This document shows, piece after piece, positions 1-64,000 of a stretch of DNA of 64,000 bases (its first letter is position 1; each line of letters opens with the position of its first letter). Position numbers and translations under genes: made by a program. Source of the stretch: Psilocybe cubensis (taxonomy: Eukaryota); assembly GCA_017499595.2 (NCBI GenBank), contig CM039005.1, forward strand, positions 558,001 through 622,000. The letters run 5' to 3'. The notes beneath the pieces were generated by a model. The model had not been told where the DNA came from. It worked only from the letters and a program-made list of their open reading frames with translations, and searched no databases.

Positions 1-2253
1 GGCTAGTCTAGACTAGTCGGTAACGACAGCCGGAAGCTCGCAAAACTGAGCAACCAATATGAATGTGCTGCAGAACACACATACGTGGCAGCCGTTCCCG
101 CGCCGTTTATCACTTTTTCGAGGTTTCAGGGCTTTCTGGGTACTGTATAATGTAGTATATCCCACGCCAAGCGTGTTTGTAGGTCCTTTGGCAGCGTGAA
201 GTTGAGATAATCAAAAATACATCCGGGGCATCTCAGGAGAGATTCAAACACAAAAACAAGCGTTTGCGAGGCTTTGAAATCACCGTGAAGATCGATAATG
301 ACTACCTAGATAATCTATAATGTGTATACGTCATGACGAATGCAGTAAACTAAGAGTACGGGTAACATTTCAAGCCACAGATGTTAAGCGCCCAAGCAAA
401 CAGCTTCACGCAGACTGTAAATTAGCAAAACACATCGATTCCAATGCTCTATAGACACACCTCGCATACCATACATATCTCAGAGTACACTATAAGACAT
501 ACATACACTCACATATCTCGTCAACGAACCGTCAAGTCCACAACCTCACACTCACGTACCTCCTCCGGCCCCCAATCCGCATTCCAGCCCATTTCCACTG
601 CTTCCTTTCATTTCGGGGCATCATCCCCACTAGCATAAGACTACTCGGCTGCGGCACGGAGCGTTCCGAGACCTAGAAGCAGGACAGAAATGAGTTGCAG
701 TGTAATGCGTCTCGAGGGAGGATATGTACGTGGCATGCGATTCTGCGTCGTTTGCGCGTTTTAAGCGGGTTGGGGTGCTTTTACTGGGTGATATGGGTTA
801 GGTGTGTATGGGGTAAAGCTTGAAAGTACATCAGGGAACCTACAATTGAGTTTATGCGTGTATGTGATGTCGTTGTTCAAATTCGCTTTAGGAAACGTAC
901 ATTTGCGAATTGGGCCGTTTTGAGGTATTCAGATGCTACAGTACTGTTTAAAATAGGGGTATATATTCATATTTATGCTTACCTGAGTAAGTACAAAGTG
1001 GAAATTTCAAAGATTTGCAGCGATGAACCCTTAAGCGCCGAAAGCGTTGAATCGCAAATACAACAAATAAACGCACCAAACACACGATGGTGGACCACTA
1101 ACACGCATGATACACTCACCCCTATACCATACAGCCCATTCTTCGACTCCAAAACTCCAACATCGCAAACCCAACTCACCGGACACAACACTCCTCCTCC
1201 TCGTCCGAATCTCCATTCAACCTCATTCCAACCACCTTCTTTCTCTTCACCCCTGCACGCCCACTAGCTCCAGACCCCTCGGCTATCCTAACGTAACGTA
1301 CTAACGGCGATTACTGAATTTTTTCTGCCAGTAGAAGAAGAAGCATTCTGTAGAGTCCGAGAGACGTTATACGTTGTTTTAATGCAAATTCGATGGAATA
1401 CGTACATTGGGGGGGTTGTAATGGTGCATAGGAGCCCCTGAGTAATCGAACTGAAAGTGAGTGAACGTTGGAACCAAGTCTGAACGTCGACGAAAGTTTG
1501 TGCAAGTCGGATTTCACATCAAGACAAGAAAACACAGAAACGCACAAAAGTACTATTACCATCTTCAACAAACGGACACCAGCATTGCTCTGCACCACTA
1601 ACATTGTCTTAAAGTACATTCTTCACGAAACAAAATCCTAGATATTCCACACACAAAGACAGAGCGTTGACCCGATACACACCCAAGAACCCCCTCCTCC
1701 TCCCCAAAATCGCAAAATCACCTCATCCCAATACGTTTTCCTGGCTCTTCGGCTCCGGAACGGTATTCAAATCCAAATTGCGTAAACCAACTAAAAAGCG
1801 GCGTCTCATTTGAGAAGAATTAGAATGCCTGTGTTGCAACGCGAAATCAGAACAAACCATTGGAGAGATAACGGGTATGCGTACGTACGTTTGCTGTTCC
1901 CGAGTCAATTACTAGTTTATGCAATTCGATTAATGCATGGGTGAATGTGTGTTGACGATCTACGATACGAGTTGGAATTCACTTGATGCAAGGTAGATGA
2001 TACTCGAGTCTAAAGTTCTGTGAGCCGCAAACCAAAAACGATTTGAATTTGAATCTCACATCTCGGACACCAATGTAAATTCAAAGCAACACAACAATAC
2101 CTCCAACACGAAACAGATAACAAACCCATTCGATCAATAGCACATTGCGTAAACGCACTAGCAACTATACCGATGAACCGCGAACCGAGAGAAAGACACA
2201 AAAAAAAAACATTGCAAAGACGTAACGTTATGGACGTACAGGGGCAGCAGGTG

Positions 2254-2345
2254 TATAAAAAGGACACGGACTAACGGGCTTTTTTCCTCATCCCCTCTCC
2301 TCTCCTCTTCTCACATTCTCTTCTCCCGCTCTCCGCTCAATGCCC
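2254..2345 (+). promoter_or_regulatory. TATA box followed by a CT-rich tract (fungal core-promoter-like); present in every unit
   Basis: TATAAAAAG at 2254-2262, then a ~60-nt pyrimidine tract (2280-2340). Nearly invariant even in divergent unit 7 (53091). Confidence 0.5.
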
Positions 2346-2693
2346 TTGTCAGCCCGCCCCTCTCCAACATCCTACACTCGCACTGCACTGCCAATGGACG
2401 GGAACGCACCGGTACGAGTCAACGTGCCCACGACGCCGTGAGTATTCCCCATCCCTCCCCTGAGCTGCGCCACGTCTGACCCTCCCTTCGCAGGAACACG
2501 TTTGACGACGAGTAGAGGATCTGGGAGGTAGAGGTCGGAGTCGGCGACGCGCCATAAATGCCACGCTGGCATGTCGACCGGGGCATCGAGGGCAGCGCAC
2601 GGTGAGCCTCTAACATTTGTTTTCGCATCACACTCCGCCAAACCGCCTTTCTCTGCAGGTTGCCACGCCATCGAGACGACGCGGGACTCGAAT

Positions 2694-3062
2694 GCGCGTG
2701 CTCAGCGAGCTTGAGGACGGGGTAAGTAAATGCATTATTCGACGGGTATCATTGTTGACTGACCTGGACACGCAGAACCTTGCATGTGTGTTCCCAAGAG
2801 TCGGACACGTCGTCGAAACTGTAAGTCAGTCCACACTCGTCAGCAACCGCCTGTGATTGACAACCGCTGCATCAAGACCTGCGCCTGCTCAGCGAGCTTG
2901 AGGACGGAGTAAGTAAACAAGCTATTCAACATGGAACACTGCTGACTGACCTGGACACGCAGAACGACCTTGAATCCGTGTTCCCGAGCGGCGGAAACGC
3001 TGTCGAAAGTGAGTGCATGCTTTGTTCGTCAGACCGCCCGTGATTGACCACCCAATACCAAG
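2694..3062 (+). repeat. Internal ~187-bp direct duplication (two exon-intron pairs)
   Basis: GCTCAGCGAGCTTGAGGACGGNGTAAGTAAA...GACTGACCTGGACACGCAGAAC occurs at ~2700 and ~2887. A third partial CTGACCTAGACACACAG is at ~3149. Confidence 0.9.
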
Positions 3063-3795
3063 GCCGTATCGATTGGGGGGCAGGGAACAATGAGACCTAT
3101 GCAAAAGTAAGTTGTCGTGTCGTTCACCGTGAACCAGCCTGAACTAACCTGACCTAGACACACAGAGCACCCCCAATCTATTCAAAGGCCTACATCCGTT
3201 CAACCGGTGCAGCTCGACACATGCGCTCCGCTCGTTGTGAATCGCCCCTTGACAGCCCGCCTTGCTGCGGATTCCAGTACGCGATTGGGGAATGGACTGG
3301 ACGCGGTGGTGATGTGGTGGATGTGTGAGTACGCTGAGATGTTAGTAGGGAATGACTTGGAATGACCACACACAAGTACAGGTTGTGGTGTTGCCGTGGT
3401 TTCGCATCGGCCGCATATACCGTGGAGATGTGGAGGGAGGTGCCTAGTCGGTGTCCTAAGGATGCCATTGCAGGTTAGTTGACCCGTTGTTCAACGCGAG
3501 TCATGTCAAACTTACCTGAGATGTACATTGCAGGTCTGCGCTACCCTAAAATCTGGCTCTCCAATATCCCAGGCGGCACTCCTGTTGAATGCGAGTCGGG
3601 AACGCCGCAGCAAGGTACGTGACTCGTGTTCTGAACAGTTGTGACTGGGGTATAACGCGTTGTTGATAGGGTGGTGCTGATGGAAAGGATAACAGCAGGC
3701 AAGGGCATTCGTATCGACGCGTATGTCCCATATACGGGCAATGTCGATTCATAGCGGGAGCCGCTGCCTGATTGCCTGCTCCCGTGCATTCGCCT

Positions 3796-4400
3796 TCAAA
3801 CACGCTGAGACGCAGCTCCGCCCGCGTGCTGTCCCTCCATCGGCTCCCCTCCCTCCCCCGCCTGCTCTCCCTCATTCTCCCCCAACCCCCCCTCCTCCGG
3901 ATCCAACCAACTCTCCTCAACCGTCACCTTGACCCTCCTCACATACTCCTTCATATTTTCCCTATACAACTGCGCCGCCTCCGCATTCGCCGGGCTATTC
4001 GGGTTCGGATCATGCAGCAAGCTCTGTATACTCGTCAATATCGCCGCGACGTCGTATGTGGGCGACCACCGGTTTTGCAGGATGTCGAGGCAGAGCTCGC
4101 TGTTCGCGTAGACGTTGGGGTGGAACATCCGCGAGAGGAATTTGACGGTGGGCGGTTTGTTGGGGTAGGACTCGTCGAATGTGAGGAGGAGCTTGAATGT
4201 GCCGTCTTCGAAGGGGGTGTCGCCTGTTGATAGGTGAGTGGCTGGGGGTGAGTGGGGAGAGGAAACGCACCTGGCCCGAAGATGACAGCGTTCCAGAGCA
4301 TAATATTGTCGGGGAGCGGACTGCCCGAGATCCCGCCTGGCGGGTCGGACGAGAGGCGCTTGAAGTCCCGGATGAGCCGTTTCTTGCAGTTCGTCGACAT
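3796..4400 (-). CDS. RAD6: Ubiquitin-conjugating enzyme E2 Rad6/Ubc2, copy 1 (185 aa; exons 4400-4271 and 4223-3796; S85 variant)
   Basis: Splicing out 4270-4224 (GTGCGT...CTCAC...CAG, 47 nt) joins [16 protein letters not shown]...WNAVIFGP to [10 protein letters not shown]...YPNKPP...[26 protein letters not shown]...DPNPNSPAN plus an acidic tail. The catalytic Cys falls at residue 88, as in yeast Rad6. Confidence 0.97.
4224..4270 (-). other. Spliceosomal intron of RAD6 (47 nt, phase 1); present in all 8 copies
   Basis: GTGCGT donor, CTCAC branch point and CAACAG acceptor. Its removal restores the Rad6 reading frame. Confidence 0.95.
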
Positions 4401-5703
4401 TGTTTGCTGAGTAAGATTGGGTCAAGTAATTCGGGTGGCTTTGGTTAAAGCGAGAGAGGGAGGTGTGGTCGTGTCTGAATCGCGTGCTGTTAATGAGGGC
4501 ACTGCGACTGTCGTCGTACACGTCGTCTCGTATGTGGTATGCGGTATTCTAATGATGGTATGCGATATGGATTGTAAAACCTGCAAACCCAACTTTAATT
4601 GTATCTTCCCCTACCAAACCACCCTCAAAACATACCTTTGTACGTGCGTATATGCAAGCGTAAAGTCGTCTCAGGCGGCTGGTATGAAGAAACAAGCAAG
4701 TCAGTCTAACTCAGAAGCAGTGGCAGTGGCAGGCCTCCTCATGTCACGCCCACTGACCGTGACCTGACTCCGCCGCATCTAATCTGGAAACAAACAATAG
4801 CAACAACAATCACTCTGCCGAAATGCCGCAAGTTGACTTTGTCGTTGTAAGTATTTCATTCATCCACAACGGTTGCCCTGAACGATGAGGACGCTCTTTC
4901 ACTCGCAACGGCGCTTGTTCGATTCCCCGCACCCATTGCGCTGTGTCCTGATTGCCCCCGCCGCCTGCTACAATCTTCAAAGTAGTCAACGTATCACTGT
5001 GATTTGACTTTGCCCTCGCCTACGGTCTGGTAAGCATACCACACACTGCAAAGTGCAAAGTGCGGACCACCGGACCCGACGCGCTCGTGCCTGTTTGGCC
5101 TCTACCGTGTCCGCGTCCATCAGCCCACACATGCACACACGCGCTATGCAAACATCACACCGGCACCCCTGACTCAACCCAACTCCCGCGTTCCAATGCG
5201 TTGAGATTTGCACTGTGTAGCGTATCTCGAGAACCACAGGGTATAGCACAACGACTCTCGATGTCTCAGGGATGCTTACTCTGAGCGCAACAATTCTCAA
5301 TGACAGAGACAAAGCAGGACATTTTTTGTATTTTAAGAACACACTTTTGTAAAATTCTAACCAAAAAAGGCAAAATCTATTTATAACTGAAAAAAAGAGC
5401 CTTGTCCACAATGTCCAACCCTCTTCTGGTAACAAACTTCAAGGGTTTCCCCTCCCCCGAAGGGCAGAGAAACAAAGTGACGGGGTGAGGTCCCCCGACA
5501 CATGGTGGGTTAGTAGCAGAAACAGCGGGAAGGGGCATAAAAAGTCAGTGGGGCAAGTCCATAGCCCTACCGTAAAGCTCCGAAAACATACCTAAGCAGG
5601 TTTCTAGATAAATACAAGTCTGCGAGAGATTCAGAATACAACTTACTTGGTAAAGTTTTTGTCATTCAATGGATGCAACGGCAGCAGGCGGCATCGGTGT
5701 CAA

Positions 5704-7028
5704 CTACAATCAAAGTCAGTCACAGTCTATTCAAAGTACAATTCTACAGACTTACCATTCCGAATCTCGCTCGACGGACGGAAATACATAGCGTCGAGGG
5801 TTTTTGCTTGTAAGAAATTTCTAGAGTCAAAGTTAGCAGTAGTTTAGGGAAAGTAAAATCAAGCCCACGTACCAACTATCGTGTCAAAGCACTCGTGCAG
5901 ATGCCCCATCCTGCTCGTCGGACGTCGATATATGGTCTCAAGGTAAATCTAGAGCCAAGGTCAGTAAAAATCCAATAAATGAATGCCATACATACATACC
6001 TCAACGGGCACACAGCTAACAACGCCTGCTCGGCGGACGGCGATACGTCGTGTCAAGGCAAAATCTAGGGTCACGGGTCAGTGATAATTAATGCAAACCA
6101 AGTTGAAGTACACTTACCACTTGGTGTAGATCCTCACACTCGGTCGGCGGACGTCGATACATCATGTCAAAGCAAAATCTAGGGTCACGGTCAGCTTTAA
6201 TTAATGCAAAGCATGTCGAAGTACACATACCACGGGTTTTAGATCCCCACACTCGGTCGGCGGACGTCGATACATTGTGTCAAAGCGAATCTAGGGTCAA
6301 GGTCAGTCTTTGTACATTAAATAAAACTAAAACACACATACCTATGCACCAGAGGTCCAATCCCGGTCAGCGGACGGCGATACGTCGTGTCAAAGTCTAG
6401 AGTCAGAGTCAGTCTCTGTACATTAAATAAAAGTAAACCACACATACCTGTACACCAGAGGTCCAACCCCGCTTGGCGGACGTCGATACGTCATGTCAGA
6501 GCAAATCGGGGTCACCCAGACATCCAATCCCACTCGGCGGACGTCGATACGTTGTGTCAGAGCAAATCTGAGGTCAAGGTCAGTGTGAGTACATATCATA
6601 AAAGTAATACACACATACCTGAAGACCAGAGGTCCAATCCCGCTCGCCGGACGTCGATACGTCGTGTCAGAGCAATATCTAAGGCCAGGGTTAGTCACAA
6701 CTTGTTCAACGAATGCTACAGCACACTTACCACAATAGTGAGGAGGCAGGTAACAGGCGCGCTCGGCGGACGGCGATACGTCGTGTCAGGACTAAATCTT
6801 GGGATAAAATCAGTCTCCGTTTGGTAAATAAATGATACACAACTTACCAGCTCGCCGGAACGCGATACATAGCGTCGGGCTATGTTAACAGGGCATAAAT
6901 CCTTGGATCAAAGTCAGTCTCACTTCTTCAACAAACATCACAGCACATACCAGGTCGGCGGAACACGATATATAGTGTCGAAGCAATTCCATGTCGAGAG
7001 GGGTAGCACACCACCATACTGACAGCAT
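5704..7028 (-). ncRNA. Putative spliced non-coding transcript: tandem exon-intron module array (11 introns), unit 1
   Basis: Minus-strand introns at 6950-6902, 6847-6798, 6730-6679, 6618-6568, 6447-6397, 6341-6291, 6230-6179, 6117-6065, 5999-5949, 5872-5821 and 5755-5704 (49-53 nt). Each has a GTATGT/GTAAGT/GTACGT donor, CTGAC/CTAAC/CTGAT branch point and TAG/CAG/AAG acceptor. Exons share a GACACGACGTATCGACGTCCGCCGA-like core. The first three exons close all three spliced frames. Confidence 0.6.
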
Positions 7029-7524
7029 GGGTACAAAGTAGATGGATAAAAAAAACCCAATATCAGAGTTCTCTTTATACCTTTTTCACCCCAAACTTTT
7101 TCAAAGCCCGCTCTCAGTCACGTAGCAACACTTCTTTCTAGCTTCATCATTTTTACTAGCTTCGCTTCCGAATATTTCCTCATGCCATAACTTTGCATAA
7201 TAGGAGACCTTTACATCCCTTTCTCCACTCCCTCAAACGTGGAATATCAAGCCACAGTGCACCACAAGGCACAAAACTCACTCGCCAAGTCGCAATTGGC
7301 TCAAATTCATGTCCCGTGCAGTAAAAAACCTCACTCCTATCAAGTGAAAATTGTTACGCCATTTTGTAATACCACGTACTAATCTTTGGTAAAGGTCCTC
7401 GTTTCAATTTCTACAGCACATCTAGCTCTGATTTCAATGCAGTAATAGCGTTATCTTCTCCCCAAAGTATTTTTTGGGATTACTTGCTGCAGACCGGTCA
7501 ATTCGAAAGCTATGTCATCACATT

Positions 7525-7680
7525 CAGACACTCTGCACAGGATGCGCTGACGCTGATGCTGCAGACTCTGCGCAAACGATGTGCTTACGCTAACGCTACA
7601 GAGTCTGCGCACACAATGCGCTGACGCTGACTCTGTGCACAGGATGCGCTGCCGCTGACTCTGTACACACGATGCGCTGG
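7525..7680. repeat. Degenerate minisatellite, ~5 copies of a 28-37-bp unit (GACTCTGYGCACAVGATGCGCTGACGCT)
   Basis: Repeats are visible directly. Also at about 16001-16156, 24477-24632, 32956-33111, 41432-41587, 49875-50030 and 58181-58336. Confidence 0.8.
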
Positions 7681-10600
7681 CACTTGGTATTACAACATCG
7701 GCTCGCCGGCGTTCACAAGCCCAGGAACGAGATCACAACTTCCGACGCTCTAGCCTCGTTTAACTAATCGTTAAATCTACGACAAATCGCCCACAGGATC
7801 ACGATCTACGCGTGTTCATTAGGACCCTGCCCTAATTCCCCACAGGTGCGTCATCATTCCACTCTAGGTTTAGTTTGCATCTCAGGAACACAAATTCGAC
7901 TGTAAAGTCTATTTTTCACCTCCGTTCCGAGTCGACGTCATTCACGACAACAACAGTTGGTTCGACTTTGCGAGAGATGTTGGTATTTCGGATATGTTTA
8001 CAACAGTACGTCCTTTGAGTCCTGGTTACTAATCTCACGGGTGACGGAATCATTCGAAAATTAGACACTTCCTTCAAACGCAGGTGCGTGCCAAAGCCGA
8101 CATCCCACTCTATCGATACATCTCGTCTTACTCGTAACCCACTATTTTGAAGTGTTCCGTTCCATTTGACTTTGAGACTAGCGCGTCAGATAATCGGGAG
8201 TTGCTATATTCGAGTGCGCCCGAAAACACATCTATGCAACAACGTCAAGGCCAGTACTCTGACGTACCGCATTTGTTATCTCACCTTTTGCTTGTGTAGA
8301 CGTGCTATGACCTCAACGTAGACATTCAGGAGGTGATTTACGGTGACAACTCACCTTCATTCCAACATTTCCCCAGTTCAAATTCGCATGTCAACCACGG
8401 CGCGGATACCTCCTCGTCTCCCGATTCGTCATTCTAGCGCGTTGCAACCGTCTCATATACCTCGCTTCCAAGAATAGGCTAGTCTAGACTAGTCGGTAAC
8501 GACAGCCGGAAGCTCGCAAAACTGAGCAACCAATATGAATGTGCTGCAGAACACACATACGTGGCAGCCGTTCCCGCGCCGTTTATCACTTTTTCGAGGT
8601 TTCAGGGCTTTCTGGGTACTGTATAATGTAGTATATCCCACGCCAAGCGTGTTTGTAGGTCCTTTGGCAGCGTGAAGTTGAGATAATCAAAAATACATCC
8701 GGGGCATCTCAGGAGAGATTCAAACACAAAAACAAGCGTTTGCGAGGCTTTGAAATCACCGTGAAGATCGATAATGACTACCTAGATAATCTATAATGTG
8801 TATACGTCATGACGAATGCAGTAAACTAAGAGTACGGGTAACATTTCAAGCCACAGATGTTAAGCGCCCAAGCAAACAGCTTCACGCAGACTGTAAATTA
8901 GCAAAACACATCGATTCCAATGCTCTATAGACACACCTCGCATACCATACATATCTCAGAGTACACTATAAGACATACATACACTCACATATCTCGTCAA
9001 CGAACCGTCAAGTCCACAACCTCACACTCACGTACCTCCTCCGGCCCCCAATCCGCATTCCAGCCCATTTCCACTGCTTCCTTTCATTTCGGGGCATCAT
9101 CCCCACTAGCATAAGACTACTCGGCTGCGGCACGGAGCGTTCCGAGACCTAGAAGCAGGACAGAAATGAGTTGCAGTGTAATGCGTCTCGAGGGAGGATA
9201 TGTACGTGGCATGCGATTCTGCGTCGTTTGCGCGTTTTAAGCGGGTTGGGGTGCTTTTACTGGGTGATATGGGTTAGGTGTGTATGGGGTAAAGCTTGAA
9301 AGTACATCAGGGAACCTACAATTGAGTTTATGCGTGTATGTGATGTCGTTGTTCAAATTCGCTTTAGGAAACGTACATTTGCGAATTGGGCCGTTTTGAG
9401 GTATTCAGATGCTACAGTACTGTTTAAAATAGGGGTATATATTCATATTTATGCTTACCTGAGTAAGTACAAAGTGGAAATTTCAAAGATTTGCAGCGAT
9501 GAACCCTTAAGCGCCGAAAGCGTTGAATCGCAAATACAACAAATAAACGCACCAAACACACGATGGTGGACCACTAACACGCATGATACACTCACCCCTA
9601 TACCATACAGCCCATTCTTCGACTCCAAAACTCCAACATCGCAAACCCAACTCACCGGACACAACACTCCTCCTCCTCGTCCGAATCTCCATTCAACCTC
9701 ATTCCAACCACCTTCTTTCTCTTCACCCCTGCACGCCCACTAGCTCCAGACCCCTCGGCTATCCTAACGTAACGTACTAACGGCGATTACTGAATTTTTT
9801 CTGCCAGTAGAAGAAGAAGCATTCTGTAGAGTCCGAGAGACGTTATACGTTGTTTTAATGCAAATTCGATGGAATACGTACATTGGGGGGGTTGTAATGG
9901 TGCATAGGAGCCCCTGAGTAATCGAACTGAAAGTGAGTGAACGTTGGAACCAAGTCTGAACGTCGACGAAAGTTTGTGCAAGTCGGATTTCACATCAAGA
10001 CAAGAAAACACAGAAACGCACAAAAGTACTATTACCATCTTCAACAAACGGACACCAGCATTGCTCTGCACCACTAACATTGTCTTAAAGTACATTCTTC
10101 ACGAAACAAAATCCTAGATATTCCACACACAAAGACAGAGCGTTGACCCGATACACACCCAAGAACCCCCTCCTCCTCCCCAAAATCGCAAAATCACCTC
10201 ATCCCAATACGTTTTCCTGGCTCTTCGGCTCCGGAACGGTATTCAAATCCAAATTGCGTAAACCAACTAAAAAGCGGCGTCTCATTTGAGAAGAATTAGA
10301 ATGCCTGTGTTGCAACGCGAAATCAGAACAAACCATTGGAGAGATAACGGGTATGCGTACGTACGTTTGCTGTTCCCGAGTCAATTACTAGTTTATGCAA
10401 TTCGATTAATGCATGGGTGAATGTGTGTTGACGATCTACGATACGAGTTGGAATTCACTTGATGCAAGGTAGATGATACTCGAGTCTAAAGTTCTGTGAG
10501 CCGCAAACCAAAAACGATTTGAATTTGAATCTCACATCTCGGACACCAATGTAAATTCAAAGCAACACAACAATACCTCCAACACGAAACAGATAACAAA

Positions 10601-20747: not shown

Positions 20748-21352
20748 TCAAACACGCTGAGACGCAGCTCCGCCCGCGTGCTGTCCCTCCATCGGCTCCC
20801 CTCCCTCCCCCGCCTGCTCTCCCTCATTCTCCCCCAACCCCCCCTCCTCCGGATCCAACCAACTCTCCTCAACCGTCACCTTGACCCTCCTCACATACTC
20901 CTTCATATTTTCCCTATACAACTGCGCCGCCTCCGCATTCGCCGGGCTATTCGGGTTCGGATCATGCAGCAAGCTCTGTATACTCGTCAATATCGCCGCG
21001 ACGTCGTATGTGGGCGACCACCGGTTTTGCAGGATGTCGAGGCAGAGCTCGCTGTTCGCGTAGACGTTGGGGTAGAACATCCGCGAGAGGAATTTGACGG
21101 TGGGCGGTTTGTTGGGGTAGGACTCGTCGAATGTGAGGAGGAGCTTGAATGTGCCGTCTTCGAAGGGGGTGTCGCCTGTTGATAGGTGAGTGGCTGGGGG
21201 TGAGTGGGGAGAGGAAACGCACCTGGCCCGAAGATGACAGCGTTCCAGAGCATAATATTGTCGGGGAGCGGACTGCCCGAGATCCCGCCTGGCGGGTCGG
21301 ACGAGAGGCGCTTGAAGTCCCGGATGAGCCGTTTCTTGCAGTTCGTCGACAT
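20748..21352 (-). CDS. RAD6: Rad6/Ubc2 copy 3 (S85 plus H78Y in the HPN motif; possibly impaired)
   Basis: Plus-strand G>A at 21074 changes MFHPNVY to MFYPNVY. The change is visible in the ORF track. Confidence 0.93.
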
Positions 21353-25347: not shown

Positions 25348-26757
25348 TACGGCGCGGATACCTCCTCGTCTCCCGATTCGTCATTCCAGCGCGTTGGAAC
25401 CGTCTCATTTACCTCGCTTCCAAGAATAGGCTAGTCCAAATTGCCTAGACTAGTCGGTAACGACAGCCGGAAGCTCGCACAACTGAGCAACCATCTGCAG
25501 AACACACATACGTGGCAGCCGTTCCCGCGCCGTTTATCACTTTTTCGAGGTTTCAGGACTTTCTGGGTACTGTCTAATGTAGTATATCCCACGCCAAGCG
25601 TGTTTGTAGGTTCTTTGGCACCGGGAAATTCAGATAATCAAAAATACATTCGGGGCATCTCAGGAGAGATTCAAACACAAAAACAAGCGTTTTCAAGGCT
25701 TTGAAATCACCGTGAATATCGATAATGACTACCTAGATAATATATAATGTGTATACGTCATGACGAATGCAGTAAACTAAGAGTACGGGTAACATTTCAA
25801 GCCACAGATGTTAAGCGCCCAAGCAAACAGCTTCACGCATACTGTAAATTGACACAACACATCGATTCCAATGCTCTATAGACACACCTCGCATACCATA
25901 CATAGCTCGCAGTAGACTGGAAGGTATACATACACTCACATATCTCGTCAACGAACCGTCAAGTCCACAACCTCACACTCACGTACCTCCTCCGGCCCCA
26001 AATCCGCATTCCAGCCCATTTCCACCGCTTTCTTTCATTTCGGGGCATCATCCCCACTAGCATAAGACTACTAGGCTGCGGCACGGAGCGTTCCGAGACC
26101 TAGAAGCAGGACAGAAATGAGTTGCAGTGTAATGCGTCTCGAGGGAGGATACGTACGTGGCATGCGATTCTGCGTCGTTTGCGCGTTTTAAGCGGGTTGG
26201 GGTGCTTTTACTGGGTGATATGGGTTAGATGTGTATGGGGTAAAGCTTGAGAGTACGTCAGGGAGCCTACAATTCAGTGTATGCGTGTATGTGATGTCGT
26301 TGTTCAAATTCGCTTTAGGAAACGTACATTTGCGAATTGGGCCGTTTTGAGGTATTCAGATGCTACAGTACTGTTTAAAATAGGGGTATATATTCATATT
26401 TATGCTTACCAGAGTAAGTACGAAGTGGAAATTTCAAAGATTCGTAGTGATACCTCTTAAGCGCCGAAAGCGTTGAATCACAAATACCACGAATAAACGC
26501 ACCAAGCACACAACGGTGGATCAATAACAGGCTTAACACACTCACCCCTATACCATACAGCCCATTCTTCGACTCCAAAACTCCAACATTGCAAACCCAA
26601 CTCACCGGACACAACACTGCTCCTCCTCATCCGAATCTCCATTCAACCTCATTCCAAACGTCTTCTTTCTCTATCCCTGCACGACCACTAGCTCCAGACC
26701 CCTCGGCTATCCTAACGTAACGTACTAACGGCGATTACTGAATTTTTCTTTTTTTTT
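25348..26757. other. Divergent haplotype tract spanning the unit 3/4 boundary
   Basis: Cluster of substitutions and indels, e.g. CTAGTCCAAATTGCCTAGACTAG, loss of ATATGAATGTG and an extended T-run at 26743-26757. Many are shared with unit 7. Confidence 0.9.
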
Positions 26758-46178: not shown

Positions 46179-46750
46179 TCAAACACGCTGAGACGCAGCT
46201 CCGCCCGCGTGCTGTCCCTCCATCGGCTCCCCTCCCTCCCCCGCCTGCTCTCCCTCATTCTCCCCCAACCCCCCCTCCTCCGGATCCAACCAACTCTCCT
46301 CAACCGTCACCTTGACCCTCCTCACATACTCCTTCATATTTTCCCTATACAACTGCGCCGCCTCCGCATTCGCCGGGCTATTCGGGTTCGGATCATGCAG
46401 CAAGCTCTGTATACTCGTCAATATCGCCGCGACGTCGTATGTGGGCGACCACCGGTTTTGCAGGATGTCGAGGCAGAGCTCGCTGTTCGCGTAGACGTTG
46501 GGGTGGAACATCGGGTAGGACTCGTCGAATGTGAGGAGGAGCTTGAATGTGCCGTCTTCGAAGGGGGTGTCGCCTGTTGATAGGTGAGTGGCTGGGGGTG
46601 AGTGGGGAGAGGAAACGCACCTGGCCCGAAGATGACAGCGTTCCAGAGCATAATATTGTCGGGGAGCGGACTGCCCGAGATCCCGCCTGGCGGGTCGGAC
46701 GAGAGGCGCTTGAAGTCCCGGATGAGCCGTTTCTTGCAGTTCGTCGACAT
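46179..46750 (-). pseudogene. RAD6: Rad6/Ubc2 copy 6 with a 33-bp in-frame deletion (residues 65-75, [11 protein letters not shown]); probably non-functional
   Basis: The junction GGAACATC|GGGTAGG at 46512/46513 gives ESYP|MFHPN. This removes the conserved YPxxPP-V-F segment of the UBC fold while the ORF stays open. Confidence 0.8.
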
Positions 46751-49378: not shown

Positions 49379-52300
49379 GGGTACAAAGTAGATGGATAAA
49401 AAAAACCCAATATCAGAGTTCTCTTTATACCTTTTTCACCCCAAACTTTTTCAAAGCCCGCTCTCAGTCACGTAGCAACACTTCTTTCTAGCTTCATCAT
49501 TTTTACTAGCTTCGCTTCCGAATATTTCCTCATGCCATAACTTTGCATAATAGGAGACCTTTACATCCCTTTCTCCACTCCCTCAAACGTGGAATATCAA
49601 GCCACAGTGCACCACAAGGCACAAAACTCACTCGCCAAGTCGCAATTGGCTCAAATTCATGTCCCGTGCAGTAAAAAACCTCACTCCTATCAAGTGAAAA
49701 TTGTTACGCCATTTTGTAATACCACGTACTAATCTTTGGTAAAGGTCCTCGTTTCAATTTCTACAGCACATCTAGCTCTGATTTCAATGCAGTAATAGCG
49801 TTATCTTCTCCCCAAAGTATTTTTTGGGATTACTTGCTGCAGACCGGTCAATTCGAAAGCTATGTCATCACATTCAGACACTCTGCACAGGATGCGCTGA
49901 CGCTGATGCTGCAGACTCTGCGCAAACGATGTGCTTACGCTAACGCTACAGAGTCTGCGCACACAATGCGCTGACGCTGACTCTGTGCACAGGATGCGCT
50001 GCCGCTGACTCTGTACACACGATGCGCTGGCACTTGGTATTACAACATCGGCTCGCCGGCGTTCACAAGCCCAGGAACGAGATCACAACTTCCGACGCTC
50101 TAGCCTCGTTTAACTAATCGTTAAATCTACGACAAATCGCCCACAGGATCGCGATCTACGCGTGTTCATTAGGACCCTGCCCTAATTCCCCACAGGTGCG
50201 TCATCATTCCACTCTAGGTTTAGTTTGCATCTCAGGAACACAAAGTCGACTGTAAAGTCTAATTTTCACCTCCGTTCCGAGTCGACGTCATTCACGACAA
50301 CAACAATTGGTTCGACTTTGCGAGAGATGTTGGAATTTCGGATATATTTATCACAGTACGTCCTGCGAGTTCTTGTTGCCGCTATTCTCACGGGTTACGA
50401 AATCACTCGAAAATTAGACACTTCCTTCAAACGCAGGTGCGTGTCGAAGCCGACAACCCACTGGACCGACACATCTCGTCTTGCCCGTAAGCCGCTCCTT
50501 TGTAGTCTTCCGTTCCCGTTGACTTTGAATGAAACGGACTAGCGCAGAGTTGCTAGATTCGAGTGCGCCCGAAAACACATCTATGCGACAACGTCAAGGC
50601 AAGTAATCTGACGCACCGCATTCGTTATCTCACCTTTTGCTTGTGTAGACGTGCTATGACCTCAACGTAGACATTCAGGAGGTGATTTACGGTGAGAACT
50701 CACCTTCATTCCAACATATCCCCAGTTCAAATTCGCATAAACCACGGCGCGGATACCTCCTCGTCTCCCGATTCGTCATTCCAGCGCGTTGGAACCGTCT
50801 CATTTACCTCGCTTCCAAGAATAGGCTAGTCCAAATTGCCTAGACTAGTCGGTAACGACAGCCGGAAGCTCGCACAACTGAGCAACCATCTGCAGAACAC
50901 ACATACGTGGCAGCCGTTCCCGCGCCGTTTATCACTTTTTTGAGGTTTCAGGGCTTTCTGGGTACTGTCTAATGTAGTGTATCCCACGCCAAGCGTGTTT
51001 GTAGGTCGTTTGGCAGCGTGAAGTTGAGATAATCAAAAATACATCCGGGGCATCTCAGGAGAGATTCAAACACAAAAACAAGCGTTTGCGAGGCTTTGAA
51101 ATCACCGTGAATATAGATAATGGCTACCTAGATAATATACACTGTGTAATTATGATGACAAATGAAGTAAACTAAGAGGATGGGTAACCACAGATGTTAA
51201 GCGCCCAAGCAAACAGCTTCACGCATACTGTAAATGAGCAAAATACATCGATTCCAATGCTCTACAGACACACCTCGCATACCATACATATCTCAGAGTA
51301 CACTATAAGACATACATAAACTCACATATCTCGTCAACGAACCACCAACTCCACAACCTCACACTCACGTACCTCCTCCGGCCCCAAATCCGCATTCCAG
51401 CCCATTTCCACTGCTTCCTTTCATTTCGGGGCATCATCCCCACTAGCATAAGACTACTCGGCTGCGGCACGGAGCGTTCCGAGGCCTAGAAGCAGGACAG
51501 AAATGAGTTGCAGTGTAATGCGTCTCGAGGGAGGATACGTACGTGGCATGCGATTCTGCGTCGTTTGCGCGTTTTAAGCGGGTTGGGGTGCTTTTACTGG
51601 GTGATATGGGTTAGATGTGTATGGGGTAAAGCTTGAGAGTACGTCAGGGAGCCTACAATTCAGTGTATGCGTGTATGTGATGTCGTTGTTCAAATTCGCT
51701 TTAGGAAACGTACATTTGCGAATTGGGCCGTTTTGAGGTATTCAGATGCTACAGTACTGTTTAAAATAGGGGTATATATTCATATTTATGCTTACCAGAG
51801 TAAGTACGAAGTGGAAATTTCAAAGATTCGTAGTGATACCTCTTAAGCGCCGAAAGCGTTGAATCACAAATACCACGAATAAACGCACCAAGCACACAAC
51901 GGTGGATCAATAACAGGCTTAACACACTCACCCCTATACCATACAGCCCATTCTTCGACTCCAAAACTCCAACATTGCAAACCCAACTCACCGGACACAA
52001 CACTGCTCCTCCTCATCCGAATCTCCATTCAACCTCATTCCAAACGTCTTCTTTCTCTATCCCTGCACGACCACTAGCTCCAGACCCCTCGGCTATCCTA
52101 ACGTAACGTACTAACGGCGATTACTGAATTTTTCTTTTTTTTTGCCAGTAGAAGAAGAAGCATTCTGTAGAGTCCGAGAGACGTTATACGTTGTTTTAAT
52201 GCAAATTCGATGGAATACGTACATTGGGGGGGTTGGAATGGTGCATAGGAGCCCCTGAGTAATCGAACTGAAAGTGAGTGAACGTTTGAGCCAAGTCTGA

Positions 52301-53090
52301 ACGTCAAGGAAAGTTTGTGCAAGTCGGATTTCACATCAAGACAAGAAAACACAGAAACGCACGAAAGTACCATTACCATCTTCAACAAAAAGACACCGGC
52401 ATCGCTCTGCACCACTAACATTATCTTAAAGTACATCCTTCAGGAGACCAAACCCTCGATATTCCACACACAAAGACAGAGCGTTGACCCGATACACACC
52501 AAGAACCCCCTCCTCCTCCCCAAAATCGTAAAATCACCTCATCCCAATACGTTTTCCTGGCTCTTCGGCTCCGGAACGGGTCTCCACCGCCTATCCTATT
52601 CGAATCCAAATTGCGTAAACCAACTAAAAAGCGGGGTCTCATTTGAGAAGAATTAGAATGCCTGTGTTGCAATGCGAAATCAGAACAAACCATTGGAGAG
52701 ATAACGGGTATGCGTACGTACGTTTGCTGTTCCCGAGTCGATTACTAGTTTATGCAATTCAGTTAACACATGAGTGAATGTGTGTTGACGATCTACGATA
52801 CGGGTTGGAATGCACTTGATGCAAGAGTGGATGATACTCGAGTCTTAAGATCTGTGAGCCGCAAACCAAAAACGATTTGAATTTGGATCTCACATCTCGG
52901 ACACCAATGTAAATTCAAAGTACCACTGCATTACCAGTCAAAAACGAAACAAATAACAAACCCGTTCGATCAATAGCACATTGCGTAACTGCACTAGCAA
53001 CTATACCGATGAACCGCGAACCGAGAGAAAGACACGAAAAAAAAAACCTTGCAAAGACGTAACGTTATGGACGTACAGGGGCAGCAGGTG

Positions 53091-54556
53091 TATAAAAAGG
53101 ACACGGACTAACGGGCTTTTTTCCTCATCCCCTCTCCTCTCCTCTTCTCACATTCTCTTCTCCCGCTCTCCGCTCAACGCCCTTGTCAGCCCGCCCCTCC
53201 CCGATATCCTACACTTGCACTGCACTGCCAATGGACGGGAACGCACCGGTACGAGTCAACGTGCCCACGACGCCGTGAGTATTCCCCATCCCTCCCCTAG
53301 CTGCGCCACGTCTGACCCTTCCCTTCGCAGGAACACGTTTGACGACGAGTAGAGGATCTGGGAGGTAGAGGTCGAAGTCAGCGACGCACCATAAATGCCA
53401 CGTTGGCATGTCGCCCGGGGTATTGAGGGCAGCGCACGGTGAGCTTCCAACATTCATTTTCGCATCACACTCCACAACTCCGCCTTTTTCTACAGGTTGC
53501 CACGCCATCGAGACGACGCGGGACTCGAATGCGCCTGCTCAGCGAGCTTGAGGACGAGGTAAGTAAATGCATTATTCAACGTGTATCATTGTTGACTGAT
53601 CTGGACACGCAGAACCTTGAATCCGTGTTCCCGAGCGGCGGACACGCTGTCGAAAGTGAGTCCGCGCTTTATTCGTCATACCGCCCGTGATTGACCACCC
53701 CTACATCAAGACCTGGGCCTGCTCAGCGAGCTTGAGGACGGAGTAAGTAAACAAGCTATTCAACATGGAACACCGCTGACTGACCTGGACACGCAGAACG
53801 ACCTTGAATCCGTGTTCCCGAGCGGCGGACACGCTGTCGAAAGGGTGAGTCCATGTTTTGTTCGTCAGACCGCCCGTGATTGACCACCTCTACCACAGGG
53901 CTGAATTGATTCGCTGTCAGAGAACACCCGAACCTATGCAAAAGTAAGTTGACGTACCGCTCACCGTGAATCAGGCTGAACTGACCTGGACACGCAGAGT
54001 ATCTGTGCTAGACCAGCTGCCCTCAATCCAGTCCAAGCAATCCGTTGTTGACCGATGGAATCGAAACGCGCGCTCGGTTCGCTGTGAACCCCGCCTTGTC
54101 ATCCCGCCTTGCTGCTGATTCCAGTACGCGATCGGGGAATGGACTGGACGCGGTGGTGATGTGATGGATGCGTGAATACACTGGAATGTTAGTCGGGAAT
54201 GGCTTGGACTGACCATGCCGTCGTCGCCAGAGACTACAGCCGTGGTGTAGGCATCGTTTCGCATCGGAGGCAGGGGCCTAGTCAACGTCCTTGGGGATAT
54301 CAATGCTGGTAAGTCGACCCATTGCTCGATGCGAGTCATGTCAAACTTACCTGAGATGTACATTGCAGGTCTGCGCTACCCTAAAATCTGGCTCTCCAAT
54401 ATCCCAGGCGGCACTCCTGTTGAATACAAGTCGGGAACGCCGCAGCAAGGTACGTGACTCGTGTTCTGAACAGTTGTGACTGGGGGAATAACGCGTTGTT
54501 GATAGGGTGGTGCTGATGGAAAGGGGATCGACGGGCAAGGGCATTCGTATCGACGC
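53091..54556 (+). ncRNA. Divergent allele of the plus-strand intron-dense unit (unit 7)
   Basis: Many substitutions relative to the other units, yet donors and acceptors are kept (e.g. GTGAGC...CTACAG, GTAAGT...ACGCAG, GTGAGT...CCACAG, GTAAGT...TTGCAG). Confidence 0.55.
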
Positions 54557-54615
54557 GTATGTCCCATATACGGGCAATGTCGATTCATAGCGGGAGCCGC
54601 TGCCTGCATTCGCCT

Positions 54616-55244
54616 TCAAACACGCTGAGACGCAGCTCCGCCCGCGTGCTGTCCCTCCATCGGCTCTCCTCCCTCCCTATCAACCTCGTCCATCTCCACC
54701 TCCCCTCCCTCCCCCTCACCCTCGCCCAAACCCCCCTCCTCCGGATCCAACCAACTCTCCTCAACCGTCACCTTGACCCTCCTCACATACTCCTTCATAT
54801 TCTCCCTATACAACTGTGCCGCCTCCGCATTCGCCGGGCTATTCGGGTTCGGATCATGCAGCAAGCTCTGTATACTCGTCAGTATCGCCGCGACGTCGTA
54901 CGTCGGCGACCACCGGTTCTGCAGGATGTCGAGGCAGAGCTCGCCGTTCGCGTAGACGTTGGGGTGGAACATCCGCGAGAGGAATTTGACGGTGGGGGGT
55001 TTGTTTGGGTAGGACTCGTCGAATGTGAGGAGGAGCTTGAATGTGCCGTCTTCGAAGGGGGTGTCGCCTGTTGATAGGTGAGTGGCTGGGGGTGAGTGGG
55101 GAGAGGAAACGCACCTGGGCCGAAGATGACAGCGTTCCAGAGCATAATATTGTCGGGGAGCGGACTGCCCGAGATCCCGCCTGGCGGGTCGGACGAGAGG
55201 CGCTTAAAGTCCCGGATCAGCCGTTTCTTGCAGTTCGTCGACAT
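54616..55244 (-). CDS. RAD6: Rad6/Ubc2 copy 7, divergent and canonical-like (193 aa; G85; longer acidic tail; intron 55114-55068)
   Basis: Reads [15 protein letters not shown], with tail [29 protein letters not shown]. About a dozen synonymous differences from the other copies (counted by eye). Confidence 0.97.
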
Positions 55245-56359
55245 TGCTTGCTGAGTAAGATGGGTCAAGTAAGTCGGTGTGCTGGTGTAGTGGTGTGGTA
55301 TGCGGTATGCTAATGCCAATGGGTATGTTATGATGCGATATGGATTGTAGAACCTGCGTTAATTGTATCTTCCTGTACCAAACCACCTTTGTACGTGCGT
55401 ATATGCAAGCGTAAAGTCGTCTCAGGCGGCTGGTATGAAGAAACAAGCAAGTCAGTCCAACTCAGAAGCAGTGGCAGTGGCAGGCCTCCTCATGTCACGC
55501 CCACTGACCGTGACCTGACTCCGCTGCATCTAATCTGGAAACAAACAATAGCAACAACAATCACTCTGCCGAAATGCCGCAAGTTGACTTTGTCGTTGTA
55601 AGTATTTCATTCATCCACAACGGTTGCCCTGAACGATGAGGACGCTCTTTCACTCGCAACTGCGCTTGTTTGATTCCCCGCCCCTGCCCCGCCGAGTCCT
55701 TCCGCTCCCGGGTAATCGCGCTCGTCGCATACTGTAACCACGATCGACAAGTCATCAACATACAGTCGCCCGTCGCCGCTCAACTATGACAACACGCATC
55801 ACACGCTATACACTACCAGTTCTATGTAGACCACCCGACGCGGACGCAATCGCAATTGCGCCTCCAACTACATCCATTTACCACCGTACTCATGAGTTTA
55901 CCGCAGCTTTGCAATATATTTTTGTTGTGCCTATTGTGTACTTGAAATATTGTTTACCCCAGTGCCTTCAAGGTTTGTCATGATGCTGCGTGTTTACTAT
56001 TTACTGATCGACGGGACAATTCTCGTGATATCATGGTTTATTCAATGCACTCTATTCGTCATGATTGTAATGAATTTCGTAAAATTCTAACCAAAACAGG
56101 CAAAATCTATTTATAACTGAAAAAAACAGCCTTGTTCAAAACTTCCAACCCTCTTCTGGTAACAAACTTCAAGGGTTTCCCCTCCCCCGAAGGGCAGAGA
56201 AACAAAGTGACGGGGTGAGGTACCCCGACACAAGGTGGGTTAGTAGCATACAAGGTGAGAAATACAAGTCGGCGAGAGAATACTCGTGTAGTGAAAACAA
56301 CGGATGGTGTTTTCGGACCGCCGAGTCAAATGGATACAGATGGCGTTAAATCATGCCAA

Positions 56360-60600: not shown

Positions 60601-62927
60601 TGGAACCAAGTCTGAACGTCGACGAAAGTTTGTGCAAGTCGGATTTCACATCAAGACAAGAAAACACAGAAACGCACAAAAGTACTATTACCATCTTCAA
60701 CAAACGGACACCAGCATTGCTCTGCACCACTAACATTGTCTTAAAGTACATTCTTCACGAAACAAAATCCTAGATATTCCACACACAAAGACAGAGCGTT
60801 GACCCGATACACACCCAAGAACCCCCTCCTCCTCCCCAAAATCGCAAAATCACCTCATCCCAATACGTTTTCCTGGCTCTTCGGCTCCGGAACGGTATTC
60901 AAATCCAAATTGCGTAAACCAACTAAAAAGCGGCGTCTCATTTGAGAAGAATTAGAATGCCTGTGTTGCAACGCGAAATCAGAACAAACCATTGGAGAGA
61001 TAACGGGTATGCGTACGTACGTTTGCTGTTCCCGAGTCAATTACTAGTTTATGCAATTCGATTAATGCATGGGTGAATGTGTGTTGACGATCTACGATAC
61101 GAGTTGGAATTCACTTGATGCAAGGTAGATGATACTCGAGTCTAAAGTTCTGTGAGCCGCAAACCAAAAACGATTTGAATTTGAATCTCACATCTCGGAC
61201 ACCAATGTAAATTCAAAGCAACACAACAATACCTCCAACACGAAACAGATAACAAACCCATTCGATCAATAGCACATTGCGTAAACGCACTAGCAACTAT
61301 ACCGATGAACCGCGAACCGAGAGAAAGACACAAAAAAAAAACATTGCAAAGACGTAACGTTATGGACGTACAGGGGCAGCAGGTGTATAAAAAGGACACG
61401 GACTAACGGGCTTTTTTCCTCATCCCCTCTCCTCTCCTCTTCTCACATTCTCTTCTCCCGCTCTCCGCTCAATGCCCTTGTCAGCCCGCCCCTCTCCAAC
61501 ATCCTACACTCGCACTGCACTGCCAATGGACGGGAACGCACCGGTACGAGTCAACGTGCCCACGACGCCGTGAGTATTCCCCATCCCTCCCCTGAGCTGC
61601 GCCACGTCTGACCCTCCCTTCGCAGGAACACGTTTGACGACGAGTAGAGGATCTGGGAGGTAGAGGTCGGAGTCGGCGACGCGCCATAAATGCCACGCTG
61701 GCATGTCGACCGGGGCATCGAGGGCAGCGCACGGTGAGCCTCTAACATTTGTTTTCGCATCACACTCCGCCAAACCGCCTTTCTCTGCAGGTTGCCACGC
61801 CATCGAGACGACGCGGGACTCGAATGCGCGTGCTCAGCGAGCTTGAGGACGGGGTAAGTAAATGCATTATTCGACGGGTATCATTGTTGACTGACCTGGA
61901 CACGCAGAACCTTGCATGTGTGTTCCCAAGAGTCGGACACGTCGTCGAAACTGTAAGTCAGTCCACACTCGTCAGCAACCGCCTGTGATTGACAACCGCT
62001 GCATCAAGACCTGCGCCTGCTCAGCGAGCTTGAGGACGGAGTAAGTAAACAAGCTATTCAACATGGAACACTGCTGACTGACCTGGACACGCAGAACGAC
62101 CTTGAATCCGTGTTCCCGAGCGGCGGAAACGCTGTCGAAAGTGAGTGCATGCTTTGTTCGTCAGACCGCCCGTGATTGACCACCCAATACCAAGGCCGTA
62201 TCGATTGGGGGGCAGGGAACAATGAGACCTATGCAAAAGTAAGTTGTCGTGTCGTTCACCGTGAACCAGCCTGAACTAACCTGACCTAGACACACAGAGC
62301 ACCCCCAATCTATTCAAAGGCCTACATCCGTTCAACCGGTGCAGCTCGACACATGCGCTCCGCTCGTTGTGAATCGCCCCTTGACAGCCCGCCTTGCTGC
62401 GGATTCCAGTACGCGATTGGGGAATGGACTGGACGCGGTGGTGATGTGGTGGATGTGTGAGTACGCTGAGATGTTAGTAGGGAATGACTTGGAATGACCA
62501 CACACAAGTACAGGTTGTGGTGTTGCCGTGGTTTCGCATCGGCCGCATATACCGTGGAGATGTGGAGGGAGGTGCCTAGTCGGTGTCCTAAGGATGCCAT
62601 TGCAGGTTAGTTGACCCGTTGTTCAACGCGAGTCATGTCAAACTTACCTGAGATGTACATTGCAGGTCTGCGCTACCCTAAAATCTGGCTCTCCAATATC
62701 CCAGGCGGCACTCCTGTTGAATGCGAGTCGGGAACGCCGCAGCAAGGTACGTGACTCGTGTTCTGAACAGTTGTGACTGGGGTATAACGCGTTGTTGATA
62801 GGGTGGTGCTGATGGAAAGGATAACAGCAGGCAAGGGCATTCGTATCGACGCGTATGTCCCATATACGGGCAATGTCGATTCATAGCGGGAGCCGCTGCC
62901 TGATTGCCTGCTCCCGTGCATTCGCCT

Positions 62928-63532
62928 TCAAACACGCTGAGACGCAGCTCCGCCCGCGTGCTGTCCCTCCATCGGCTCCCCTCCCTCCCCCGCCTGCTCT
63001 CCCTCATTCTCCCCCAACCCCCCCTCCTCCGGATCCAACCAACTCTCCTCAACCGTCACCTTGACCCTCCTCACATACTCCTTCATATTTTCCCTATACA
63101 ACTGCGCCGCCTCCGCATTCGCCGGGCTATTCGGGTTCGGATCATGCAGCAAGCTCTGTATACTCGTCAATATCGCCGCGACGTCGTATGTGGGCGACCA
63201 CCGGTTTTGCAGGATGTCGAGGCAGAGCTCGCTGTTCGCGTAGACGTTGGGGTGGAACATCCGCGAGAGGAATTTGACGGTGGGCGGTTTGTTGGGGTAG
63301 GACTCGTCGAATGTGAGGAGGAGCTTGAATGTGCCGTCTTCGAAGGGGGTGTCGCCTGTTGATAGGTGAGTGGCTGGGGGTGAGTGGGGAGAGGAAACGC
63401 ACCTGGCCCGAAGATGACAGCGTTCCAGAGCATAATATTGTCGGGGAGCGGACTGCCCGAGATCCCGCCTGGCGGGTCGGACGAGAGGCGCTTGAAGTCC
63501 CGGATGAGCCGTTTCTTGCAGTTCGTCGACAT
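62928..63532 (-). CDS. RAD6: Rad6/Ubc2 copy 8 (185 aa, S85)
   Basis: Same translation as copy 1 at offset +59132. Confidence 0.97.
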
Positions 63533-64000
63533 TGTTTGCTGAGTAAGATTGGGTCAAGTAATTCGGGTGGCTTTGGTTAAAGCGAGAGAGGGAGGTGTGG
63601 TCGTGTCTGAATCGCGTGCTGTTAATGAGGGCACTGCGACTGTCGTCGTACACGTCGTCTCGTATGTGGTATGCGGTATTCTAATGATGGTATGCGATAT
63701 GGATTGTAAAACCTGCAAACCCAACTTTAATTGTATCTTCCCCTACCAAACCACCCTCAAAACATACCTTTGTACGTGCGTATATGCAAGCGTAAAGTCG
63801 TCTCAGGCGGCTGGTATGAAGAAACAAGCAAGTCAGTCTAACTCAGAAGCAGTGGCAGTGGCAGGCCTCCTCATGTCACGCCCACTGACCGTGACCTGAC
63901 TCCGCCGCATCTAATCTGGAAACAAACAATAGCAACAACAATCACTCTGCCGAAATGCCGCAAGTTGACTTTGTCGTTGTAAGTATTTCATTCATCCACA

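Follow-up and report, generated by a model that had tools for sequence, protein, structure and literature searches.

A head-to-tail array of 8.5-kb units carrying the ubiquitin-conjugating enzyme gene RAD6 in Psilocybe cubensis

We analysed a 64,000-nucleotide stretch of the Psilocybe cubensis genome (positions 558,001 to 622,000 of contig CM039005.1, hereafter the window) and found it to consist throughout of a head-to-tail array of units of about 8.5 kb, each of which carries the gene for the ubiquitin-conjugating enzyme (E2) RAD6/UBC2. Seven full units of 8,309–8,479 bp and one partial unit are present, with eight RAD6 copies in all, one per unit and all on the minus strand. The whole window is probably an internal stretch of a gene-bearing macrosatellite, variable in copy number, in a P. 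cubensis-type agaric. RAD6, as a rule present as one gene, is a dosage-sensitive hub for DNA-damage tolerance, histone H2B ubiquitination and the N-degron pathway; its expansion is unusual, but mechanistically it is an ordinary copy-number expansion.

The units were delimited by self-BLAST, using window positions 1–8476 as the query against the whole 64-kb window. All matches are on the plus strand, identities are to the first unit (U1), and unit positions are given on U1.

U1, 1–8476, 8476 bp, reference unit
U2, 8477–16952, 8476 bp, 100 % identity
U3, 16953–25428, 8476 bp, 99.94 % identity
U4, 25429–33907, 8479 bp, 98.99 % identity (match starts 25429/25445)
U5, 33908–42383, 8476 bp, 99.99 % identity
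U6, 42384–50823, 8440 bp, 99.98/98.5 % identity
U7, 50824–59132, 8309 bp, 90.6–99.8 % identity, mosaic (starts 50824/50840)
U8, partial, 59133–64000, 4868 bp, 100 % identity

These units, together with the eight coding sequences (CDSs), confirm the head-to-tail array of at least eight copies that had been proposed from the letters of the window alone (the sequence-only reading). Short repeats inside the unit recur at the unit-length period (TRF), and the assembled window contains zero N, with both array ends lying outside it. Columns that differ from U1 number 5 in U3, 1 in U5, 96 in U4, 107 in U6 and 1045 in U7; the private mutations that the same reading had held against a trivial assembly duplication are thus real and do weigh against it.

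Other classes of repeat were considered and rejected. Ribosomal DNA (rDNA) or another known RNA was set aside with no Rfam family reaching its gathering score in 18 kb. A permissive Rfam search of one unit returned only SNORD45 (23.7 bits versus 42) and mir-9440 (20.8 bits), both weak, and a tRNA search of the sequence found none. Gene capture by a transposon or Helitron was rejected with no inverted repeats found in the unit and no transposase or Rep-helicase Pfam domain among 116 open reading frames (ORFs), the array ends being outside the window. A repeat affected by repeat-induced point mutation (RIP) was rejected on the substitutions of U7 relative to U1 (C>T 83, G>A 78, T>C 77, A>G 71), in which 309 transitions run in both directions beside 219 transversions, a spectrum that is not RIP-like. 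An ascomycete with RIP is ruled out by this spectrum and by the agaric homologues described below.

The RAD6 gene model, with its copies of identical sequence, is as follows; A-type and B-type refer to two unit lineages treated below, and X8 is a sequencing run with RNA-like contigs.

3796..4400, minus strand, RAD6/UBC2 CDS of U1, A-type, 185 amino acids (aa), with the intron removed in an RNA-like X8 contig
4400..4271, minus strand, exon 1 of U1 RAD6
4270..4224, minus strand, coding intron, 47 nt, GT-AG
4223..3796, minus strand, exon 2, including the stop codon
4401..4700, minus strand, RAD6 5' untranslated region (UTR), with a GT-AG intron at 4581–4635
12272–12876 (U2), 29227–29831 (U4), 37703–38307 (U5) and 62928–63532 (U8), minus strand, RAD6 CDSs identical to that of U1

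Exon 2 matches UQ_con (PF00179) with E 3.4e-39 and 134 bits against a cut-off of 27. Its top 16 matches in the PDB are Rad6/UBC2/UBE2A/B-type chains (E 6.6e-55 to 6.5e-50), whereas UBC4/5/UBE2D chains score far lower, from about 7e-27. An E2 of P. cyanescens is 99 % identical across 77 % of exon 2, and the named proteins among the 120 best homologues are nearly all agaric. Rad6-type chains as the best solved relatives, together with agaric homologues, indicate that the gene is an ordinary agaric RAD6 orthologue and not a diverged paralogue, in keeping with its first identification as RAD6/UBC2. The motif HPNVYAN[S/G]ELC with the catalytic Cys is present in seven of the eight copies, U3 reading YPN, and the full upstream and UTR structure of RAD6 is found in every unit. 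UQ_con is the sole Pfam domain match among the 116 stop-to-stop ORFs of at least 45 aa in the unit, and substitutions between the two lineages are codon-periodic in RAD6 exon 2 alone, so no coding gene other than RAD6 was found in the unit, as had been suggested. A splice-aware ORF search of the unit returned none longer than 152 aa; its branch-site rule missed RAD6's own intron, and the search is therefore not exhaustive.

The array interleaves units of two old lineages, A and B. A- and B-type RAD6 differ by 15 synonymous and 4 non-synonymous codon differences (synonymous divergence dS 0.140, non-synonymous divergence dN 0.014, dN/dS 0.10), and the UBC core by 11 synonymous changes and 1 non-synonymous, a pattern which, judged from codon changes, shows long-term purifying selection on RAD6 in both lineages. 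Outside RAD6, the B-type unit U7 diverges from U1 by 5–30 %, with many frameshifting indels. Divergence is 25–30 % in unit 4701–5700; there are 5 substitutions in unit 5701–7120 and zero in 7121–8476. Between these two units, ~30 % divergence across 4701–5367 passes within a few hundred bases to near identity across 5701–7800, and this sharp switch appears to mark the border of a conversion or exchange between the two unit types. In U6, B-like sequence sets in near unit position 7801 and continues to the unit's end, and two variant tracts can be drawn in the window.

50151..56355, plus strand, B-type tract, from U6 unit position about 7801 to U7 about 5700; ends approximate
25348..26760, plus strand, variant tract B', crossing from the U3 end into U4 as far as about position 1325; ends approximate

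Taken with the 2.1-kb near-identical block (unit 5701–7800) that is common to A and B, the tract across U6 and U7 amounts to one whole B-type unit amid A units. The B' tract has 71 variant columns in common with U7 and 25 of its own. An X8 contig likewise has 194 G>C, a variant of U4 alone, and a private variant, 668 G>A, is common to the neighbours U5 and U6. The near-identical block argues for concerted evolution rather than assembly duplication, and the A/B pattern in the sequence is that of an array which evolves by unequal exchange and conversion rather than that of a copy-paste artefact.

Five of the RAD6 copies (U1, U2, U4, U5 and U8) encode one and the same 185-aa A-type protein. The other three differ from it.

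20748..21352, minus strand, RAD6 copy of U3, A-type, with a private G>A at unit 4122 (window about 21074) that gives H78Y in the HPN motif
46179..46750, minus strand, RAD6 copy of U6, A-type with an in-frame 33-bp deletion, 174-aa product
54616..55244, minus strand, RAD6 copy of U7, B-type, 193 aa, G85

The U6 deletion spans unit 4130–4162, with its junction at window 46512/46513, and removes 11 core residues. Core lesions are thus present in two of the eight copies (H78Y in U3 and the 11-residue deletion in U6), while six have an intact frame and no core lesion (five A-type and one B-type). The B-type UBC core is identical to that of P. cyanescens, and the B-type acidic tail in U7 is 8 residues longer than the A-type tail. 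Every A-type copy carries G85S, which places a Ser three residues before the catalytic Cys; residue 85 is Gly in 118 of the 120 best homologues, the exceptions being the window's own ORF and one further protein. Seven private mutation events were counted in A-type units, two of them within the 558-bp CDS and both damaging the core, where about 0.5 of the seven would be expected by length (Poisson chance about 0.08, on small numbers). Because two of seven private events hit the CDS, and because of G85S, redundancy with relaxed constraint or dosage-limiting selection would fit the copies better than a need for every one of them.

Other sequencing runs were used to compare copy number and expression. 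Six runs contain at least half of the unit's sampled words, namely four possible source runs and two of another study (X5 and X6, with 0.98 and 0.97 of the words). Four runs were compared on one unit: X7 and X8 as contigs, and X12 and X13 as raw Illumina reads, with reads less than 90 % alike not placed. X12 and X13 are further isolates, whose species label is also that of a possible source run. The reads placed on the unit number 1150 for X12 and 962 for X13, of which only 12 and 20 are at least 99 % alike. RAD6 exon 2 (bin 3963–4245) has a depth of 26.4 in X12 and 18.8 in X13, against an expected depth of about 36–38x for one copy and about 290x for eight (1632 and 1731 million letters, with a ~45-Mb genome assumed from contig totals of 40–47 million letters in other runs). 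RAD6 depth in these isolates is therefore about 0.5–0.7 of the single-copy expectation at the assumed genome size; the array would be absent from both, or down to about one RAD6 copy, where the window holds eight. Variants at half frequency in X12 and X13 (4038 A>G, for example, has 11 reads out of 21) are what two haplotypes of a single locus would give, and 9 of the 30 unit bins are without depth at 90 % likeness or more.

Nine of the 15 variants listed for X12 match U7. The X7 contigs cover 29 of the 30 unit bins at 90–99 % likeness, and all seven of their listed RAD6-region variants also match U7. Word depth in X7 is 15–54 on the unit contigs versus 353 on a 118-bp element of the unit; with that element about six-fold in X12 and X13, a rough internal calibration makes the unit roughly single-copy in X7.

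The X8 contigs skip 10 listed GT-AG introns, beside which 42 further joints lie outside the listing. The listed joints comprise the RAD6 coding intron, the 5'-UTR intron 4581–4635, four introns downstream of RAD6, three in a micro-exon transcript and one on the plus strand (7344–7394). Unit 284–1981 and 4812–5377 are without X8 cover. At position 4374 the window's letter has a depth of about 282 and the other letter 188, so that RAD6 of two forms is present in that material.

These comparisons bear on an account in which selection favoured extra RAD6, as at CUP1, because it raises the capacity to ubiquitinate PCNA or H2B when the fungus faces genotoxic or UV stress or is cultivated. It would be served by the apparent difference in copy number between isolates, by the appearance of both the A form and a second form in RNA-like contigs (about 282 versus 188 at 4374), by the six copies intact in frame and core, and by the upstream and UTR structure that accompanies each of the eight. 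We nevertheless consider such adaptive dosage unlikely: both of the private A-type events that fall in the CDS damage the core and exceed the number expected there, G85S is fixed in all A copies at a site that is otherwise almost invariably Gly, and in X8 the A-form RNA does not exceed the other form many-fold, although contig depth is a poor measure. Another version, which we regard as quite improbable, holds that an A-type Rad6 with changed activity or partners was amplified as a lineage-specific adaptation, with damaged copies trimming the dosage. Changed activity or partner choice is suggested because G85S lies near the catalytic Cys and the acidic tail is shortened. Under such selection the motif-rich spliced RNA described below may have been amplified too, for example in cultivation or under genotoxic stress in certain P. 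cubensis lineages.

Public records already contain several of these genes. The 174-aa protein of U6 is, letter for letter, 'Ubiquitin-conjugating enzyme E2 2 [Psilocybe cubensis]' (KAH9478268.1/XP_047745893.1), which sits on a contig of 3,335,923 bp. The 193-aa protein of U7 is identical to a P. cubensis entry with the accessions KAH9474175.1, KAH9474177.1, KAH9478270.1 and KAH9478276.1 (UniRef n=5), and the B-type accessions are spread over two contigs, the longest again of 3,335,923 bp. The step of two from KAH9478268 to KAH9478270 is what tandem genes separated by a single other predicted gene would give. Multi-copy RAD6 genes are thus present in a public annotated assembly, with at least seven annotated entries and the same protein under several accessions. 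A literature search found no paper that pairs Psilocybe with RAD6, or P. cubensis with ubiquitin-conjugating enzymes or copy number variation, supplements being outside the search; one protein under several accessions with no literature match is a practical point for genome annotation.

The records also bear on an assembly artefact, in which one or a few real copies, or the two haplotypes of a dikaryon, would have been over-expanded or stitched together by a long-read assembler. The 100 % identity of U1, U2 and U8, the single base that sets U5 apart, the placement of the window's ORF on a contig of only 74,668 bp and the coincidence of the B-tract borders with those of the common A/B block, where a haplotype switch would fall, are all compatible with this idea. 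Set against it are at least three unit variants in a fixed order with a private variant common to neighbouring units, two different lesions in different RAD6 copies, annotation of the 11-residue-deletion and B-type proteins as well, under several accessions and on the 3.3-Mb contig, and recurrence of the variants in independent runs. On this balance an artefact seems doubtful.

Several points weigh against a copy-number-variable macrosatellite nonetheless. How many of the identical units U1, U2 and U8 there are depends on the assembler, and the short contig that bears the window's ORF may be a repeat contig that was left unplaced, or may show the array of the 3.3-Mb contig in another version. 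With no array flank or junction in the window, the mechanism of origin is one that we infer. Because reads less than 90 % alike were left out, X12 and X13 judge RAD6 only, and the depth expected of them rests on a genome size borrowed from the contig totals of other runs. Finally, none of the listed runs that contain the unit is recorded as RNA, and the identification of X8 as such is a software guess, for which its splice joints and the stretches without cover are the sole support.

In the macrosatellite model that we prefer, an 8.5-kb chromosomal segment recurs head to tail and carries a complete RAD6/UBC2, with its promoter region, 5'-UTR intron and one coding intron, along with three spliced, apparently non-coding transcription units. 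The array would grow, shrink and homogenise through unequal exchange and gene conversion between units. Every intact unit would add a transcribable RAD6 gene, so that dosage can rise, and redundancy would let single copies decay. RAD6 may be the cargo, and perhaps not the cause, of the amplification.

The array can be compared with known systems. The CUP1 array of Saccharomyces cerevisiae, with a unit of about 2 kb and copper as the selective agent, resembles it in having a head-to-tail, few-kb unit with a complete host gene, and probably also in strain-variable copy number and unequal exchange; the RAD6 unit differs in its 8.5-kb length, its E2 cargo and the coexistence of two old lineages. 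The human macrosatellites D4Z4/DUX4 and RS447/USP17 are polymorphic and consist of multi-kb units that each hold an ORF, some copies being degenerate. RS447, like the RAD6 array, holds a ubiquitin-system enzyme, but both are animal loci, partly heterochromatic and with no sequence relation to it. rDNA arrays share a head-to-tail unit of ~8–9 kb and homogenised units, whereas the RAD6 array has no rRNA or other Rfam family, a far lower copy number as seen here and a protein-coding cargo. The nearest printed case found is the X3X3R8 repeat family of Parastagonospora (Stagonospora) nodorum, which is reported to stem from an endogenous cluster of genes, a Rad6-like E2 among them, and to number nine copies (PMC3017866). 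X3X3R8 copies are dispersed, also carry Rad5-like helicases and are RIP-degraded in an ascomycete host (PMC3017866); the RAD6 array is strictly tandem, basidiomycete, free of RIP-like bias and made up of mostly intact genes.

The array is of interest for its RAD6 cargo and for the coexistence of two old unit lineages, tandem gene amplification itself being a known class. Natural one-copy and many-copy strains would test the effects of E2 dosage on mutation rate, meiosis and stress tolerance in a mushroom, and copies with defined lesions (G85S, H78Y and the 11-residue deletion) belong to that natural series. The array could also show how multi-kb repeats keep two old lineages while homogenising part of the unit.

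The remaining content of the unit is made up of three spliced transcription units that are apparently non-coding, with a short element at the end of one of them.

2239..3795, minus strand, spliced transcript just downstream of RAD6, with introns 3456–3515, 3097–3148, 2897–2950 and 2710–2763
5400..7100, minus strand, micro-exon transcript, about 12 exons of 54–76 nt (one of 120 nt), introns of 49–53 nt
7124..8476, plus strand, spliced transcript with intron 7344–7394, extending ~230 bp into the next unit
5368..5486, minus strand, element of 118 bp that closes the micro-exon transcript on its 3' side; on the minus strand it finishes in a T-run

The sequence-only reading had described two units beside RAD6 as intron-packed and non-coding-looking, and this description holds, with spliced RNA-like contigs covering them and stops in all frames. 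The transcript downstream of RAD6 has stops in all frames, and A and B differ in it by 13.5 % and show frameshifting indels. Either this is a non-coding RNA, or RAD6 has a long, spliced 3' UTR; the latter may be the case. One X8 contig (3515–3832) begins inside the end of the RAD6 CDS and continues across four introns beyond it. Although this contig has the 16-bp deletion that is typical of B, it is identical to A units further downstream, so that other strains hold further mosaic haplotypes.

The micro-exon run occupies window 5756–7010 on the minus strand and lies at the same place in every unit; three introns of the transcript are among the listed X8 splice joints. Each micro-exon opens with a conserved motif of ~28 nt (plus-strand form GCTCGGCGGACGTCGATACGTCGTGTCA), of which 11 copies were found per unit, and a 20-mer of the motif has 56 matches in the window at three mismatches or fewer, against 0.02 expected. 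The spliced micro-exon RNA has stops in every frame, and a consensus fold of the micro-exons gave no consensus pairs over 12 exons. In other isolates, motif pieces at 6029–6065 and 6533–6675 map with unrelated flanks, while the rest of the micro-exon run does not. A motif match in a metagenome fell on a single GC-rich contig with no other likeness and was taken as chance. A small nucleolar RNA (snoRNA) host gene was also considered and rejected: no Rfam family reached its gathering score (the best, SNORD45, as given above), and snoRNAs are longer than the 47–60 nt of the unit's introns, which are thus too short to house them.

These features raise the idea that amplification is driven by the micro-exon RNA, with its ~12 motif copies per unit, or by the plus-strand RNA, RAD6 being a passenger. 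The block homogenised between A and B (5701–7800) is the part with the micro-exon gene, and the motif and the 118-bp element are the only non-RAD6 parts at least 90 % alike in other isolates, where the element is multi-copy. Against this, the failure of any Rfam family to reach its gathering score, the missing consensus fold and the chance nature of the sole metagenome match give the RNA no recognisable function, and homogenisation can be neutral. A non-coding driver is accordingly a poor prospect.

The plus-strand transcript 7124..8476 has no long ORF. It holds five copies of a 28–37-nt repeat at 7527–7696 (GACTCTG..CACA..ATGCGCTGACGCTGA) and ends before the 1.7-kb stretch that is without RNA-contig cover in X8. 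Its orientation is relevant to the idea of a locus directed against RAD6, whether selfish, drive-like or RNA-silencing, possibilities that had been put forward from the sequence alone. Damaged copies exist, and multi-copy arrays of meiosis-relevant genes are a known theme in drive systems. However, the X8 joints listed between 2700 and 4635 are all in minus orientation, the same as RAD6 and hence sense, and no antisense RAD6 RNA was seen in this one RNA-like sample, which tells against silencing. With no RNA-contig cover joining the plus-strand transcript to the next RAD6, no inverted repeats and purifying selection in both lineages, a locus of this kind is highly improbable.

The 118-bp element differs by 4.2 % between A and B, with no indels. 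It has no Rfam or tRNA match, and its fold is no better than that of shuffles (z -0.14). In X12 and X13 it reaches a depth of about 230–245, where one copy should give about 36, and its flanks are of at least two kinds; high depth and varied flanks make it either a short repeat that is dispersed or a gene end common to more than one gene. Elsewhere in the unit, at 2693–3052, a 187-bp module is duplicated, and its introns bear splice-like signals on both strands at an offset of ~11 nt: GTAAGT...CAG on the plus strand and GTCAGT...AAG on the minus strand, the RNA-like contigs using the minus sites.

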